This document shows, in pieces, positions 5,929 through 55,341 of a stretch of DNA of 64,000 nt. Positions within the stretch are counted from its first letter, which is position 1, and each line of letters begins with the position of its first letter. Both the position numbers and the translations under genes were made by a program. The notes beneath the pieces are model-generated. The model was not told the origin of the DNA. It ran no database searches and saw nothing but the letters and a program-made list of their open reading frames with translations. This DNA is from Candidatus Parcubacteria bacterium (lineage in GTDB: Bacteria; Patescibacteriota; Saccharimonadia; UBA4664; JBIOIQ01), in the NCBI GenBank assembly GCA_963718875.1, contig OY970378.1, positions 605,373 through 669,372 on the forward strand, in the 5' to 3' direction.

Positions 5929-6384
5929 ATGGCAGAACTAACATTTGAGCTAGTTACTCCCGAGGGAATCAAATTTACTGAAGAGGCATATGAAATTTTA
6001 CTGCCTACTCCCGATGGACAAATTGGTATACTTCCCCACCACCTAGCGTTGGTTTCATTGGCTACTGCGGGTGTAGTTAGCGTTCGTCGGCGCGCTACCG
6101 ATACGGATAGCCAAATGGAGCACTTTTCGACCACAGGAGGTCTTATTGAAATTGACGGAAAGCGGGTGCGGTTGCTTGCCGATTCGGCTGAACATGCAGA
6201 CGACATAGAACCTCTCAAGGTCCAGGAGGCGCTTAAGCATGCGCAAGACTTGGCAAAAACTGCTGGTAGCCATGTGGCGTTGGCGGATGCTACGGCTTTG
6301 ATTGAGCGCTATAGTTCACAACTTAAAGTGGCGGATATAAAAGGACGTCATCATAAACGTACTGAGAACCAATCGCCTAAATAA
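5929..6384 (+). CDS. atpC: ATP synthase subunit epsilon
   Basis: Beta-sandwich N-terminus (FELVTPEG...). Last gene of the operon. Confidence 0.85.
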   Translation: MAELTFELVTPEGIKFTEEAYEILLPTPDGQIGILPHHLALVSLATAGVVSVRRRATDTDSQMEHFSTTGGLIEIDGKRVRLLADSAEHADDIEPLKVQEALKHAQDLAKTAGSHVALADATALIERYSSQLKVADIKGRHHKRTENQSPK

Positions 6385-6640
6385 CGCTGAATCAAAAACC
6401 TCTAGATCTGTAAAGCCTCTTTTGCCACCCATCTCGGTGAGTGGATCCTCTTCCCTGAATTTATTTTCTTTCATTAACCGCGAGTTTTTTGTCAGGGAGG
6501 ACTTATATCTTTTTGCTCTGTTTATAGAGTTATATAATTTTCAAATTTGCTTGTTTCATATTACATCTGGCCGAACCAAATATGTTGGTATTTTTGGCAA
6601 ACAGCTGTATCCAGCCATTGCATTTTTTAATAAAGCCAAT

Positions 6641-47563: not shown

Positions 47564-47989
47564 TCAACCCTCGGATGTAGGCGGATGTTCCCTGTTTCGT
47601 TTTTCCGCTGCAGTTGCATCCATTAGTGCAGTTAAATCTTCTTCAACACCAAAGAATTGGTATGCATAAGCTAAATCCATTGCACTTTCAACAGATTCGA
47701 GGAAGCGTTGGTCGTCAACATCTCTCCATATCCTGGCCATTGAGAGTTCAAGGGCTAACCCAAGCATTTCGTAACGGTCTCGGTTGGCATCCACTATTTC
47801 CATTCCGGCTTCACGGTAACTTGCGCTTAATGATACAACGTCTTCTGTAAGTTCCCTTAACCCAGCTTCTATGATACGAGATCTAATATCTTGCATTCCA
47901 GGAGTTTCGACGAACCCTAGTTGCTCGACGATTTCCTCAAGCGTTCTTGGACGATCTATTTCTGGTTCAGACTCTTCGACGCCACTCAT
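47564..47989 (-). CDS. Hypothetical acidic protein (141 aa)
   Basis: ORF only. Confidence 0.35.
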   Translation of the reverse strand: MSGVEESEPEIDRPRTLEEIVEQLGFVETPGMQDIRSRIIEAGLRELTEDVVSLSASYREAGMEIVDANRDRYEMLGLALELSMARIWRDVDDQRFLESVESAMDLAYAYQFFGVEEDLTALMDATAAEKRNREHPPTSEG

Positions 47990-48064
47990 TTTTAGTCCTC
48001 TTTTAACTTAGTATAGCAATGAATTATGTTACGATATAATCAAGAGCATAACCAAGGTGGTGGA

Positions 48065-48958
48065 ATGTACAAACCTTATGATGAGCGAGTACCAGATACT
48101 CAATATCGTGATTTATTAAAAAACATTTTGGATAATGGTGAATTTGGGGAGACGCGTCAAGGACCACGGGCCAAAACTGTCATAGGGGCCCAAATGCGTT
48201 TTAAATTGGCCAATGGATTTCCGGTAATTACCGATCGCAGCATCAAGTCTTTTTGGCAAAAACCGATTGGCGAGCTGTGCGCATTTATAAATGGCGCTCG
48301 TACGCGTGAGCAGTTAGCGGAGTTTGGCTGTACATGGTGGGATGCTTGGACAAGCGAGGAAAAGACAAAAAAACGTGGACTTGAGCCCGGTGATATTGGC
48401 CCTGGTTCGTATGGTGCGGCTTTTCATGATTTCCCGACGGCTGATGGTGGCAGTTTTGACCAGTTTAAGCATTTGGTAGAGCAAATCAGTGAGTTTCCGG
48501 AAATGCGCACACATTTTGTGACGCCCTGGATTCCTCAATACATTGTGCGAGGTAAAGGCAAACAACAAAAAGTCACCATTGCGCCCTGCCATGGCTGGAT
48601 ACATGTGCGGATATTTAATGAGAAGTTACATTTGCACATGTTCCAACGCTCGGGTGATGTTCCTATTGGCGTTCCGTCAAACATGATCCAATACGCTGCG
48701 CTGGCCTTGATGTTAGAGCATTTAACTGGCTTTGAGGCTGTGGAATATGTTCATACTATTTCGGATGCTCACATATACGAAGATCAGATTGAGTATTTAG
48801 GGGAAATGTTAGAACGAGAGCCTTTAAAATTACCCACTGTAAGCCTGACCGAAGAAGGCAAAAAAGTTACCGACATTCACAACTTTCGCATGGAGCATTT
48901 TGAATTGAGCGATTACGCGCCGCATCCTAGTATTCCTAAAATTCCTGTAGCGACGTGA
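48065..48958 (+). CDS. thyA: Thymidylate synthase
   Basis: Active-site PCHGWIHV. AAGGTGG RBS before MYKPYDE. Confidence 0.9.
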   Translation: MYKPYDERVPDTQYRDLLKNILDNGEFGETRQGPRAKTVIGAQMRFKLANGFPVITDRSIKSFWQKPIGELCAFINGARTREQLAEFGCTWWDAWTSEEKTKKRGLEPGDIGPGSYGAAFHDFPTADGGSFDQFKHLVEQISEFPEMRTHFVTPWIPQYIVRGKGKQQKVTIAPCHGWIHVRIFNEKLHLHMFQRSGDVPIGVPSNMIQYAALALMLEHLTGFEAVEYVHTISDAHIYEDQIEYLGEMLEREPLKLPTVSLTEEGKKVTDIHNFRMEHFELSDYAPHPSIPKIPVAT

Positions 48959-49452
48959 TTTCGATTTTGGTGGCTTATGCTCGCAGTGGTGTTATTGGCA
49001 AAAGCAATGACCTACCTTGGTACTTACCGGCCGATCTAAAGCGTTTTAAGCAACTAACGACTGCACATCCGGTTATAATGGGTCGGAAAACATTTAACTC
49101 AATTATAAAGCGACTTGGCCATCCTCTGCCCGACCGCACGAACGTGGTTTTGACTCGCGATACTAAGTTTCAATATGATGGGGCTATGGTGGTAAACGAC
49201 CTGGATACGGCTATAGCGATGACACAACCAGAGGGCGAGGTTTTTATTATTGGAGGCGCTCAGGTTTTTAACCAATCAATGAATGTGGCTGATAAGATTT
49301 ATGCTACCGAGATCGATGCCGATATTGAAGGCGATGTTTATTTTCCGATAGTCGATCGCAGTGAGTGGCAGGAAACCAGTCGTGAAGAACATGAGTCTGA
49401 CGAAAAGAACCCGTATAACTATGCTTTTGTGATTTATGAGAGGTTAAGATGA
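48955..49452 (+). CDS. folA: Dihydrofolate reductase
   Basis: GVIGKSNDLPWYLPADLKRFKQLT...IMGRKTF. Overlaps the thyA stop. Confidence 0.85.
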   Translation: MISILVAYARSGVIGKSNDLPWYLPADLKRFKQLTTAHPVIMGRKTFNSIIKRLGHPLPDRTNVVLTRDTKFQYDGAMVVNDLDTAIAMTQPEGEVFIIGGAQVFNQSMNVADKIYATEIDADIEGDVYFPIVDRSEWQETSREEHESDEKNPYNYAFVIYERLR

Positions 49453-49904
49453 GCGATATAAGCTATAACTTGCAAGCTGGGCGTACGCCAGAACAGCTTG
49501 AACAAATGAAGCGTCTTCAGGAAAGCGGAATTTGTGCATTTTGTCCTGAATATCTAGCTACTGAACACCGTGAACCAATTGAAATTCGCACCAACTACTG
49601 GGTTGTGACTAAAAACGACTATCCTTATAAACGCACAAAGCTTCACTTGTTGTTGATACCCTTAAAGCATGTTAAGACGTTGTCTGAATTAAACTCAGAA
49701 GCCTTACATGACCTAACTGACACTATTGTGATGATAGAAAAAAAGTGGGGACTTAAGTCTTATGCGGTAATATCGCGCTCTGGGGACATGCGTTATAACG
49801 GCGGCAGCGTAGAACATTTGCATACTCACATTGTTGTTGGTGATGTGGATGATCCTGACCCTGAGCCTGTGCGCTTTAAGGTGAGCTCGCGCCCCAAAAC
49901 TTGA
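49449..49904 (+). CDS. HIT-family (histidine triad) protein with CxxC motif
   Basis: HLHTHIV = HxHxHxx. CAFCPE. Confidence 0.65.
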   Translation: MSDISYNLQAGRTPEQLEQMKRLQESGICAFCPEYLATEHREPIEIRTNYWVVTKNDYPYKRTKLHLLLIPLKHVKTLSELNSEALHDLTDTIVMIEKKWGLKSYAVISRSGDMRYNGGSVEHLHTHIVVGDVDDPDPEPVRFKVSSRPKT

Positions 49905-49988
49905 TCTGACTGTCAGATGTCGGTACCATGGTTTCAGATCAGGCGCCCGCCTGGTCTAAAGTTCTCATGCGTCGGAAAGGACGTTGAT

Positions 49989-50618
49989 ATGGCTGACGAG
50001 CTCGTTGTACGAGAAGAAGCAGTACGGGGAGAGAAGCCTTTGGAGAGTGTGTATCGGCGGGCCAACCAGGAGGGTTTGTGTCCGTTCGATGATCTTGATC
50101 CAGCGGTGAATGTTCCGGTATATCCAGATGAGGTTTTCAATTTCTGGAATGTCTGGTATCGCCCGAAGCCGCGTCGGGGTCTGGCTGTGCATGTCATCCT
50201 GGCCACCAAATCCCATCTCCGTCATTTCGATGATCTCACAGGAGAGGGACAGCTGGAGTACTTCCGCATCCTGGCGATGTTGAGGAGGAACTTTGGAGAG
50301 TCCTACGCCTTGGTATCACGATTGGGTGGGGATGAGAACCGCAATCTCAACGCCGCCTCGGTTTACCACCTCAGCGCTCATTTCACGATCAGCGACGGCT
50401 TGCCCGTGTCTCTGGCTGACATTCCTCAACCCTTCCTCAGCCTCTACCTCGAGCTCAAAGGTCGAGCACCCACAGTTGACGACCAGATGCAACCGCTGGA
50501 TCCTTTGGAGTTCATGGATGCTCTGAGGCTGTGGTTGGACGTGGCACGAGCTGCTGAGAAAGGGCTGGCTTGGCCGGTTCGCGAACTGGTTACCAAGCGA
50601 GTTGCTCCTTCCAGCTGA
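49989..50618 (+). CDS. Diverged HIT-like paralog on a high-GC island (triad degenerated to HLSAH)
   Basis: Aligns to the adjacent HIT gene: NFWNV/NYWVV, HVILATKSHL/HLLLIPLKHV, FGESYALVSRLGGD/WGLKSYAVISRSGD, ASVYHLSAHF/GSVEHLHTHI. GC is mid-to-high 50s by eye versus low 40s in the neighbour. Confidence 0.55.
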   Translation: MADELVVREEAVRGEKPLESVYRRANQEGLCPFDDLDPAVNVPVYPDEVFNFWNVWYRPKPRRGLAVHVILATKSHLRHFDDLTGEGQLEYFRILAMLRRNFGESYALVSRLGGDENRNLNAASVYHLSAHFTISDGLPVSLADIPQPFLSLYLELKGRAPTVDDQMQPLDPLEFMDALRLWLDVARAAEKGLAWPVRELVTKRVAPSS

Positions 50619-50627
50619 GTCTCTCGA

Positions 50628-51515
50628 CTATGTTGCTTTCTCCGGGTAGGGTCGGTATACATCGGCCCTATCCGGGGGGAGCTCTACATTAACTTTTATT
50701 AATTCTACATCGTTGGCTTTTAAAACCCTTTCACCGTCAAGGACGGCGTATCCTTGAGCATAGAAGCAGCGTTTGATACCAGAATTTGCTATCAGCATGG
50801 CGCAAGGTGGGCAAGGGAAGTTTGTCATGTAAATGTCAGCTTCTTCGAGCGACTCCCCTTTTTTGGCCGCATCGGCAATCAAGATGGCTTCGGCGTGCAT
50901 GTCGGTTGACATTTCGATTCCTACCCCACGAAAAAAGTTCATGCGTATGTCGCCATCAATCCAGGCTGTGTGGTCAGTGGGTTGATGTCGGTTTGAGGCC
51001 TGGTTCAATATCTTCCCGTCTTTAAGAATTAATGCTCCTACCTGTCGCCAGATATTTGAACTCTGTTTGCTCTCTTTGTGGGCTAATATCACCATTTGCT
51101 TGTCAAAATCGGACTCTGACATTGCGTGATCAGGGTTGGCCTCATCTTTGGCATTACTGCGGCGACGGTCCCAACGTAGAAAAATTGGGTCAAACACGAC
51201 GTCTTGATCAGAAAAAAACTCATGGGCAAGATCATGCGAAATATCTTCATCTGGCATAATAATTTGATCGCTTTTTCCGACGTTCGAAAGCTGACCCAAG
51301 CTAATTAGACTGGTATCGGGAATTATTTTCCATGAACGTATGGCAGAGACTACCAGTTCTGGATCGAGAGCCCGTAACTCTTTGCGCAGCCAATCAAATT
51401 TTTTTATGAGAGATTTGTCAAAGACGTAGGCAGCTTTAGCATCTTTGTGCTTAGTAAAAAAACTGTAGTAGCCTTCATGAAGTACCGGCACATAGGCAAT
51501 AACGATCTTGCCCAT
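50628..51515 (-). CDS. dCMP-deaminase-domain protein with N-terminal domain of unknown function
   Basis: HAEAILIADAAKKG...PCPPCAML zinc motifs in the C-terminal half. Confidence 0.6.
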   Translation of the reverse strand: MGKIVIAYVPVLHEGYYSFFTKHKDAKAAYVFDKSLIKKFDWLRKELRALDPELVVSAIRSWKIIPDTSLISLGQLSNVGKSDQIIMPDEDISHDLAHEFFSDQDVVFDPIFLRWDRRRSNAKDEANPDHAMSESDFDKQMVILAHKESKQSSNIWRQVGALILKDGKILNQASNRHQPTDHTAWIDGDIRMNFFRGVGIEMSTDMHAEAILIADAAKKGESLEEADIYMTNFPCPPCAMLIANSGIKRCFYAQGYAVLDGERVLKANDVELIKVNVELPPDRADVYRPYPEKAT

Positions 51516-54648: not shown

Positions 54649-55341
54649 TTACGGTTTCTCTTTGCTCAGGGTGGTGGTCCAGCCTACTTCGTTGATTTCT
54701 AGCGACCCATCAGGCAGGATTCGCCAGGAGACAACCTTGGATAGCCAGACAGTGGCGCTGGCCTGGGTAATTCGACCTTCGAATTCCTCTTCGACCTTCA
54801 TCTCCAGCCGATTGCCCTTGAGTTTGTAGCTGCCACGGGCAATGTGGCCTTCGATCGGGTCGAAGCCTTCATCGGAGTCCAACAGAACTTTCCGGCAGAG
54901 TCGCCAGCGATAACGTCCAAATCGCAGTTGCCGACGAAGTTTCCTGGTTCGAATGCGCACTAGGAGTGGCTTGATGAAGCGGTTTCCTGTTATTCGTGTC
55001 AACAGTGGCAGCTGGAGCTCGAGTATTCCCTGGCGTTTGACAGGGTTGTATTGACCTGCCCAGGTTTCATCTTCGGGGAATGTTACCTTGATCATGAGCC
55101 ACTCGCCAGATTGGTTGGGGATGAGGCGGATTACATGACAGGGGTAGAAAGCTTCAGTTACTTGTAGTCTGCCTCCAAGACGCATGGCGCCGGTTCTGAA
55201 AACAAACAGACTGTCATAAGCGCCTTCATCACCTTCTCCTTTGTTCAGGTTTTCTCGCAGACCTGCCTCGTCTAGCCCGGCAGTAATCCTGAGCCGCTCG
55301 GACTTGAATATCCGGTACATTTCTGACCTGTCCTTGATCAA
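54649..55341 (-). CDS. Hypothetical protein on a high-GC island (230 aa)
   Basis: ORF with GC visibly above its neighbours. Followed on its strand by the GC hairpin gcccccgac-N15-gtcgggggc (54611-54645). Confidence 0.4.
   Translation of the reverse strand: MIKDRSEMYRIFKSERLRITAGLDEAGLRENLNKGEGDEGAYDSLFVFRTGAMRLGGRLQVTEAFYPCHVIRLIPNQSGEWLMIKVTFPEDETWAGQYNPVKRQGILELQLPLLTRITGNRFIKPLLVRIRTRKLRRQLRFGRYRWRLCRKVLLDSDEGFDPIEGHIARGSYKLKGNRLEMKVEEEFEGRITQASATVWLSKVVSWRILPDGSLEINEVGWTTTLSKEKP

Follow-up and report, generated by a model that had tools for sequence, protein, structure and literature searches.

A GC-rich, degenerate second histidine triad gene in a thymidylate gene block as a probable local copy of an old Patescibacteria paralog family

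The stretch of DNA analysed here, hereafter the window, comprises 64,000 nucleotides of contig OY970378.1 (assembly GCA_963718875.1) from Candidatus Parcubacteria bacterium, which is placed in the Saccharimonadia in the GTDB lineage. It contains a thymidylate gene block in which thyA and folA are followed by two histidine triad (HIT) genes, here called HIT1 and HIT2, and which faces a deoxycytidylate (dCMP) deaminase-like gene and a cytidylyltransferase-like gene on the opposite strand (Table 1). Open reading frames (ORFs) and Pfam matches bear out this thyA-folA-HIT-dCMP deaminase context, which an earlier sequence-only reading of the window had named. That reading took HIT2, which has a high guanine-plus-cytosine (GC) content, to be a xenolog recently inserted beside its native homolog. 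Our analysis favours a different view, namely that HIT2 is the local copy of an old Patescibacteria HIT2 family residing in the thymidylate block, a family that is GC-rich throughout and of which the window copy is a degenerate member; we put the probability of this reading at roughly 60%.

Table 1. Features of the thymidylate block and its convergent neighbours, with positions counted from the first letter of the window.
Feature	Position	Strand	Basis or remark
thyA (thymidylate synthase)	48026-48958	+	ORF; heads the plus-strand run
folA (dihydrofolate reductase)	48955-49452	+	ORF; orthologs annotated PF00186
HIT1, 151 aa	49449-49904	+	Pfam PF01230 (HIT), 35.8 bits, cut-off 21.5
HIT1-HIT2 intergenic leader, 84 nt	49905-49988	+	Alignment with L001, L082, L083
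HIT2, 209 aa	49989-50618	+	B-like allele; degenerate member of a long HIT paralog family
HIT2 CxxC remnant C31-P-F-D-D	50079-50093	+	Sequence and alignments
HIT2 triad H127-L-S129-A-H131	50367-50381	+	Sequence, alignments, profile alignment to PDB HIT motifs
HIT2 C-terminal extension, residues 136-209	50394-50618	+	
dCMP deaminase-like gene, 295 aa	50628-51515	-	Pfam PF00383, E=4.6e-15; PHROG dCMP deaminase
Cytidylyltransferase-like gene, 209 aa	51516-52145	-	Pfam PF01467, E=3.2e-19; directly upstream of the deaminase gene

The first of the two HIT genes encodes a canonical HIT protein with the motifs CAFC, NDYPY and HLHTH and the C-terminal PVRFKVSSRPK. HIT1 has 370 homologs, mostly from Saccharibacteria, and its residues C29, C32, H123 and H125 are invariant across 30 homologs. 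Against the diadenosine tetraphosphate (Ap4A) phosphorylase equivalog of NCBIfam, NF052622, it scored 19.8 bits, below the cut-off of 290, and its match to the defence protein ThsC reflects generic HIT similarity only. The preceding folA gene overlaps both thyA and HIT1 by 4 nt. The orthologs of thyA in syntenic loci are annotated PF00303, its amino acid identity to relatives amounts to 88-95%, and its translation probably starts at the ATG at 48062. Two Saccharibacteria loci, L085 (6973-7926) and L086 (1057-2010), have folA and HIT1 joined in one gene for a 317-aa DHFR-HIT protein (L numbers denote loci and P numbers proteins). Through this Rosetta-stone link, the HIT1 family is connected with the metabolism of folate and thymidylate.

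HIT2 is homologous to HIT1, as had been claimed from the sequence. BLASTP aligned the two proteins at E=6e-12 with 26% identity over 136 residues, and structure prediction confidently gave the HIT alpha+beta fold. The HIT2 protein of the window matched nothing in Pfam or NCBIfam, with 0 Pfam families found even at E≤1; PF01230 was matched by 13 of the 19 HIT2 family members. Against the profile of its own family, the window protein scored 202 bits over profile positions 1-203. Its triad HLSAH aligns to HLHTH of HIT1, whereby the middle histidine is replaced by Ser129, the AGC codon of which lies two base changes away from a His codon. The CxxC pair is reduced to C31-P-F-D34 (50079-50090), with the second cysteine replaced by aspartate, a change common to P0122 (locus L081) and P0123. 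Both of these losses had been read correctly. The reported C-terminal extension of ~80 aa is also real, but it is better described as a two-helix insert of ~55 aa, which separates the HIT core from a C-terminal P-[IV]-R motif also present in HIT1. The insert helices were predicted at residues 147-158 and 172-190 with a predicted local distance difference test (pLDDT) score >90, and the tail GLAWPVRELVTK behind them corresponds to the family motif GKAxPIRxKLSNK and to PVRFKVSSRPK of HIT1.

A typical member of the HIT2 family is ~200 aa long and consists of an N-terminal GAR...CxFC part, the HIT core, VSDGxP, the helical insert and the C-terminal GKAxP[IV]RxKLSN. The window protein deviates from this architecture at CPFD, HLSAH and GLAWPVRELVTK, and it retains the family-invariant non-catalytic residues R8, W53, G64, H76, R111, G113, H127, S135 and A194. 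In comparison with the HIT superfamily (Hint/Fhit, PF01230), it shares the alpha+beta fold but has neither the nucleophile histidine nor the second cysteine and falls below the Pfam gathering threshold, and its family further adds an N-terminal GAR helix region and the two-helix insert, for which there is no solved counterpart. The closest structural neighbour of the predicted HIT2 model is the Ap4A phosphorylase/ATP adenylyltransferase of the Rv2613c type (PDB 3ano), at 15% identity over ~104 residues, and the NF052622 equivalog gave no match to HIT2. The window HIT2 is a new, degenerate variant inside the HIT superfamily.

Translation of HIT2 starts at the ATG at 49989, which is preceded by the Shine-Dalgarno (SD) sequence GGAAAGGA, is kept in relatives and is used by a public 209-aa gene call. 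The ATG at 49917, the start of the listed ORF, was rejected, since the conserved SD-preceded ATG is the one at 49989. Up to the start codon of HIT2, the spacer behind HIT1 is conserved between the window, L001, L082 and L083. Here, RNAalifold showed a 9-bp hairpin at 49936-49957, in which one pair is changed on both sides and several changes lead to G-U pairs; a further 4-bp stem at 49970-49983 holds the SD sequence (49974-49981) partly in its loop. The leader had no match in Rfam, and it may exert translational or processing control of HIT2. A chimeric assembly junction between HIT1 and HIT2 is very unlikely, because a Logan contig of 1300 bp from run ERR12037361, a separate assembly possibly of the same reads, contains the junction with an identical protein, and because the same arrangement recurs in many assemblies. 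At its other end, HIT2 converges on the deaminase gene with stop codons 9 bp apart (50616-50630), the corresponding gap in relatives ranging from -4 to 53 bp, and no intrinsic terminator-like site was found between the two stops. Transcripts from each of the two convergent operons must accordingly terminate within the opposing gene or run on into it.

To place HIT2 among its relatives, an exhaustive profile-free search of 1.84 billion representative proteins was carried out, which returned 44 hits. At the top were some twelve proteins 198-218 aa long plus two of 341 and 351 aa, and a homolog from a high-GC phylum did not turn up in this search. A word-index protein search retrieved the query itself only, and the same search with the HIT2 family profile retrieved 10 proteins; a metagenome scan with one HIT2 alignment yielded 2 loci. 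The HIT1 family was also used to scan the GTDB species genomes, which gave 80 loci from Saccharibacteria, other Patescibacteria and Solirubrobacterales. Second HIT genes were then placed by tblastn, profile scans, gene tables and contig look-ups of HIT2-like proteins. A second HIT gene is present in the thyA-folA-HIT1-[HIT2]-deaminase block of the window and of 17 other Patescibacteria loci. It lies directly between HIT1 and the convergent deaminase gene in L001, L002, L004, L009, L050, L076, L081-L085 and L087-L090, and likewise in L092 and on the contig with P0140, whereas in L091 a short second HIT gene (6001-6492, P0136) is situated upstream of thyA in the same block. The gene order of the relatives is that of the window, L12-L10-orf-thyA-folA-HIT1-HIT2 / deaminase-cytidylyltransferase-L1-L11-NusG. 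The HIT1-HIT2 tandem and its synteny are widespread. With many Saccharibacteria sharing the tandem at this syntenic position, the idea that HIT2 had been inserted beside a lone resident HIT gene is not supported.

The gene is not present everywhere in this group. In the Saccharibacteria loci L003, L005-L008, L010 and L020, which are without HIT2, HIT1 abuts the deaminase gene and leaves no room for it. Among the family members that could be placed, none was found outside this block; for the closest relative, the fragment P0123 with 74% identity, a contig location was not found. A literature search on Saccharibacteria and 'histidine triad' found nothing relevant. Taken together, HIT2 is a second HIT gene restricted to Saccharibacteria/Patescibacteria and an old paralog of the adjacent HIT1. 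A third, shorter type of second HIT gene, encoding 160-210 aa, was observed in L091 (6001-6492, P0136), L050 (6485-7063) and L076 (3333-3959). These genes encode WxVW and a C-terminal AIAVFFKD or RIPVFKD, belong to thymidylate blocks of more distant Patescibacteria and are GC-richer than their neighbours. As for HIT1, its next-closest relatives come from Solirubrobacterales (Actinomycetota, ~66-74% GC; loci L011-L065) at 41-48% identity and not from other bacteria, a hint that HIT1 was exchanged long ago between the Saccharibacteria and the Actinomycetota.

The GC content of HIT2 is indeed well above that of its neighbour and flanks, reaching 55.7% against 43.6% in HIT1 and 44.4% in the window. 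At the first, second and third codon positions (GC1/GC2/GC3) it amounts to 66/40.5/60.5 in HIT2 and 52/37/42 in HIT1 (GC3 42.1%). Windowed GC and GC3 were computed and are not uniform: no 630-bp stretch in the window is richer in GC than HIT2 (z=3.1), and its GC3 ranks first among 67 ORFs. When HIT2 was recoded with the codon usage of the window, a GC content of 49.3% and a GC3 of 42.6% were expected, compared with 55.9% and 60.6% observed in this decomposition, and of the 11 excess GC points, ~4 come from amino acid usage and ~7 from synonymous choice. The protein contains more R, L, V, P and D and fewer K, I, T and S, and phenylalanine is encoded by TTC in 8 of 9 cases, compared with 20% genome-wide.

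This excess is shared by the relatives. The difference between HIT2 and the mean of its neighbours was positive in 14 of 14 loci, averaging +9.8 GC points (range +3.6 to +18.2) and +18.4 GC3 points, and the second HIT gene was also GC-richer in L089, L090, L091 and L092, making 18 of 18 loci. Taking the loci together, the final 25 codons of HIT1 have a mean GC3 of 0.45, HIT2 itself has 0.54-0.69, and the final 25 codons of the deaminase gene have 0.43. The GC3 of HIT2 (50-74%) follows that of the host (30-60%) only loosely. The GC-richest gene of L091 is again its second HIT gene, although this one occupies a different place in the block; therefore, the effect goes with the gene and not with the site.

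How the excess behaves over time was examined in the group of L004, L089, L090 and L009. Here, the ratio of nonsynonymous to synonymous divergence (dN/dS) of HIT2 was 0.11-0.23 compared with 0.02-0.05 for HIT1, indicating purifying selection, albeit looser. The synonymous divergence (dS) of HIT2 was 0.35-1.4, similar to or below that of the neighbours, and its GC3 was 0.50-0.59 compared with 0.30-0.41. Among singleton synonymous changes in HIT2, 15 were weak-to-strong (W->S) and 16 strong-to-weak (S->W), where the regime of the neighbours would predict ~2.5 S->W per W->S; the deviation has p ~0.01 by normal approximation, on counts that are small and polarised by parsimony. A composition that persists at dS ~1 with balanced changes is maintained and is not the decaying mark of a recent entry. 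The GC excess of HIT2 is confined to the ORF, extends over all three codon positions and is held under purifying selection, and it is a property of the gene family, not the scar of a recent transfer.

These results bear directly on the proposal that HIT2 came in recently from an organism of high GC content, for instance one of the Actinobacteria, and still has a donor-like GC content, which we regard as highly improbable. The proposal can draw on the position of HIT2 as the strongest compositional outlier of the window with atypical codon usage, on the conflict between its gene tree and that of the neighbouring genes (described below), and on the HIT1 family in Solirubrobacterales at 41-48% identity, which implies that HIT genes passed between Saccharibacteria and Actinomycetota at some time. 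However, 17 further loci have the slot occupied and show the same rise in GC, among them loci with the vertically co-diverging type-A copies described below, and there is no sign of amelioration at dS ~1, W->S and S->W changes being balanced. Moreover, all placed family members reside in Patescibacteria thymidylate blocks, the Solirubrobacterales loci hold a HIT1-like gene only and no HIT2, and neither flanking repeats nor a tRNA, mobility genes or an integrase were found at the HIT2 site. Best hits in different phyla had been envisaged for the two paralogs, but the closest relatives of HIT1 and HIT2 lie on the same Saccharibacteria contigs, which speaks against a xenolog. Like genomic islands, HIT2 has an atypical GC, GC3 and codon usage and an incongruent gene tree. 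Unlike them, its composition is conserved across orthologs and at apparent equilibrium, it is one ORF in a housekeeping block without mobility genes, and a HIT2 gene occupies the same site in the close relatives L081, L082, L083, L001 and L002 and on the P0140 contig. HIT2 thereby provides a clean counter-example to the practice of reading a deviant GC content or codon usage as a sign that a gene was recently transferred. A defence-system or phage origin was likewise considered and rejected, as HIT2 has no PADLOC or PHROG match.

Most likely, a gene-specific force would hold the GC content of HIT2, a foreign origin being unlikely. One candidate force would be selection on nucleic-acid or codon composition, for example to throttle expression and keep the dose of the ORF low. 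A second would be GC-biased gene conversion tied to allele swapping; a recombination-associated elevation of GC3 has been proposed for bacteria (PMC4450053). The sharp boundaries of the excess at the ORF fit selection on composition better, or else conversion limited to the cassette, and they count against diffuse conversion tracts. Several other causes were tried and set aside. An embedded structured RNA was rejected, given that HIT2 has no Rfam match at E≤1 and that the mRNA of the window gene folds at z=0.12, no more stably than dinucleotide shuffles; across orthologs, the fold z-scores are inconsistent (+0.19 to -3.9). Antisense ORFs are long in L050 and L076 but short and non-corresponding in the window, and an overlapping antisense gene was rejected. 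Flanks without a GC3 gradient and the L091 copy, which is GC-rich elsewhere, disfavour a site effect, be it of the convergent junction or of local recombination, and codon adaptation to high expression is disfavoured by the ribosomal protein genes of the window, the GC3 of which is 37-45%.

It is conceivable, although very unlikely, that the base composition of HIT2 would itself be the selected trait, a GC-rich ORF being kept phylum-wide in an AT-richer operon for the conversion of dCMP to thymidylate (dTMP). In that case, expression of HIT2 or of the operon would depend on the supply of C/G versus T/A nucleotides or of the cognate tRNAs. The gene would then be an inbuilt sensor of the balance of pyrimidines, which is under the control of the operon, with the often catalytically dead HIT protein as its nucleotide-binding output.

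HIT2 proteins fall into two main allele types. Type A is carried by L082, L083, L001 and L002 and represented by P0150, P0169 and P0134, and is characterised by CDFC at the CxxC position, the core motifs WVATxNDFPYPGT and LTAQTxPHLHFH, and the C-terminal GKAxGIYPKLSNK. Type B comprises the L004/L009 group and P0124-P0135, with CPFC, the core motifs WNVWxNxSP, SYSxxSRLG and NSATVYHLHxH, and the C-terminal GKAxPIRAKLSNK. Type-A HIT2 proteins are 62-72% identical to each other, compared with 52-79% for HIT1 of the same genomes, and their tree matches that of the neighbouring genes. The window HIT2 has the derived B-type motifs WNVW and VYHL. Its identity is only 26-28% with type A, compared with 47% for P0122 of L081 and 74% for the fragment P0123, whereas the neighbouring genes of the window and L081 are 66-89% identical. 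Another divergent HIT2, P0140, was found in a close relative, on a contig with P0007, a HIT1 68% identical to that of the window. The HIT2 slot is unstable, being empty in some relatives and holding at least three divergent types among close relatives.

A neighbour-joining (NJ) tree of concatenated thyA, HIT1, deaminase and cytidylyltransferase united the window, L081, L001, L082 and L083 in one clade (100% bootstrap), with L002 outside (99%). In the HIT2 tree, by contrast, the window and L081 grouped together (100%) outside the type-A clade (100%), and a 12-taxon HIT2 tree joined them with the B clade of L004, L084 and L088 (100%). This conflict means that the window HIT2 is not an ortholog of the HIT2 of its sister genomes, and the incongruence supports allele replacement or paralog sorting within Saccharibacteria and not a foreign donor. 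Another Saccharibacterium would have been the source of the B-like allele, which would have come in through homologous replacement of the segment between the conserved flanks. The conservation of the leader up to the start codon between the window and type-A genomes fits such a cassette-like replacement. Of the homology-facilitated recombination proposed earlier, homologous replacement, or else differential paralog loss, within an existing slot is upheld, but the foreign donor is not, any donor being likely among Saccharibacteria.

Differential paralog loss would need no transfer at all: the ancestor would have had both A- and B-type HIT2, and different copies would have been lost in different lineages. 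We consider this fairly unlikely. In its favour, A- and B-type genes reside in one and the same block, the family tends to duplicate (the fused P0129 and P0132), L091 has a second HIT gene at another position, and no sampled donor lineage carries a close B-like allele. It is weakened by the fact that 0 sampled genomes have both A and B, and it needs several independent reciprocal losses within the tight clade of the window, L081, L001, L082, L083 and the P0140 contig.

The altered triad raises the question of what the window protein would do. In HIT enzymes of all characterised branches, the middle histidine is the nucleophile (PMC4176373), and the titles of PDB entries (Hint1 H112N, Fhit H96N, covalent Fhit-nucleotide) agree with this. 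The residue was also lost in four other members of the family, P0134 (HLSVH), P0168 (HLCFH), P0140 (HLCVQ) and P0143 (HPSTQ), all of which are full-length genes in the same slot with independent losses. In addition, P0129 (341 aa) and P0132 (351 aa) are natural fusions in which a complete HIT2 is joined to a further, partial HIT2-like repeat that has no triad; the gene for P0129 (L087, 725-1750) sits between HIT1 and the deaminase gene. The window HIT2 would not form a covalent nucleotidyl-His intermediate, and hence would not carry out covalent nucleotidyl transfer. It would instead serve as a non-catalytic nucleotide-binding partner, most simply paired with the intact HIT1, and the pair would act in the pathway from dCMP to dTMP. 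Adjacency, operon structure and the fused P0129 and P0132 are the observations bearing on this pairing, and the DHFR-HIT1 fusion supports a link of HIT proteins to dCMP-to-dTMP metabolism. The earlier suggestion of a pseudo-enzyme or regulatory partner is reasonable with respect to the lost nucleophile, which four members lost independently; the pairing itself is put forward tentatively. We give a non-catalytic nucleotide-binding subunit, most simply paired with HIT1, a chance somewhat short of even.

The analogy is with GalT-type HIT pseudo-dimers, in which a degenerate half pairs with an active half. There and in Apa, the two HIT-like halves, one of them catalytic, are part of a single chain, whereas HIT1 and HIT2 are separate genes. 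Furthermore, most HIT2 family members keep the full triad, unlike the degenerate half of GalT/Apa.

Alternatively, HIT2 could be a dying gene without function, its constraint relaxed after loss of first the Zn-site cysteine and then the nucleophile histidine, in which case its ORF would simply not have had time to break. This reading, which we judge unlikely, accounts for the lost catalytic and cysteine residues, for a window copy that stays below every Pfam and NCBIfam threshold, for the dispensability of HIT2 in L003, L005-L008, L010 and L020, for a family dN/dS above that of HIT1, and for the identity of only 47% between the HIT2 proteins of the window and L081, compared with 66-89% for the neighbouring genes. 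It fits poorly with an intact 209-aa ORF that has an SD sequence and a conserved leader, with the retained family-invariant non-catalytic residues and the confident fold prediction. Its GC3 is as high as in functional orthologs and has not drifted to the genome value, and full-length genes persist in four other lineages despite loss of the nucleophile.

HIT2 might also be an enzyme of altered chemistry acting on a nucleotide of the dCMP, deoxyuridylate (dUMP) and dTMP pathway, with Ser129 as nucleophile, attack by water, or phosphorolysis without a covalent histidine. The retained H127, H131 and nucleotide-binding core would allow this, as would an Ap4A phosphorylase as closest structural neighbour and the location of the gene among nucleotide-converting enzymes. 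We nevertheless consider it quite improbable, as the middle histidine is the nucleophile in all characterised HIT branches (PMC4176373) and its mutants are inactive, substrate-trapping forms according to PDB titles. Furthermore, the relatives have Cys, Ser or Thr at this position and P0140 and P0143 lose the third histidine too, so the pattern looks like loss and not like a new catalytic residue under conservation.

With respect to the reading of HIT2 as a degenerate member of an old, GC-rich family in the thymidylate block, several points weigh against it or qualify it. The 18 loci that share the GC offset are phylogenetically non-independent, and selection on composition is no more than a candidate cause of the excess. 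As to allele history, a 19-taxon HIT2 tree confirmed the exclusion of the window and L081 from type A but did not settle their sister group, and NJ trees of such short and divergent proteins may suffer from long-branch effects. Replacement and differential paralog loss are inseparable, with no donor among the sampled genomes. In terms of function, the heterodimer idea draws on just three things, namely the analogy above, the adjacency of the two genes, and P0129 and P0132 as fused relatives. The window HIT2 is the only member of its subclade seen without the nucleophile histidine, given that P0122 keeps HLHAH and P0123 ends before the motif. With a family dN/dS at 2-5 times the HIT1 value, plain decay of the window copy could also be at work.

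A persistently GC-rich HIT2 paralog family is nonetheless a well-documented oddity, and the force behind its offset bears on the open question of what sets bacterial GC content. Saccharibacteria depend on salvaged nucleotides. The conserved HIT1/HIT2 pair and the DHFR-HIT1 fusion point to an unrecognised HIT-dependent step or control in the thymidylate pathway, and the repeated loss of the nucleophile makes HIT2 a candidate for a natural series of pseudo-enzymes.

Two further ORFs were noted near the block. The 230-aa ORF at 54649-55341 on the minus strand, just upstream of nusG, has a GC content of 52.7% and the second-highest GC3 (58%) of the 67 ORFs. It gave no match in Pfam, PADLOC or PHROG and no tblastn match in the syntenic loci L082 and L083, both of which extend past nusG; in contrast to HIT2, it looks genuinely strain-specific. 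The second, a 141-aa ORF at 47564-47989 on the minus strand between L10 and thyA, is without a Pfam match and shows 45-47% identity in L082 and L083. The position between L10 and thyA holds a NUDIX-like gene and another ORF in L082, and SHMT in L085.

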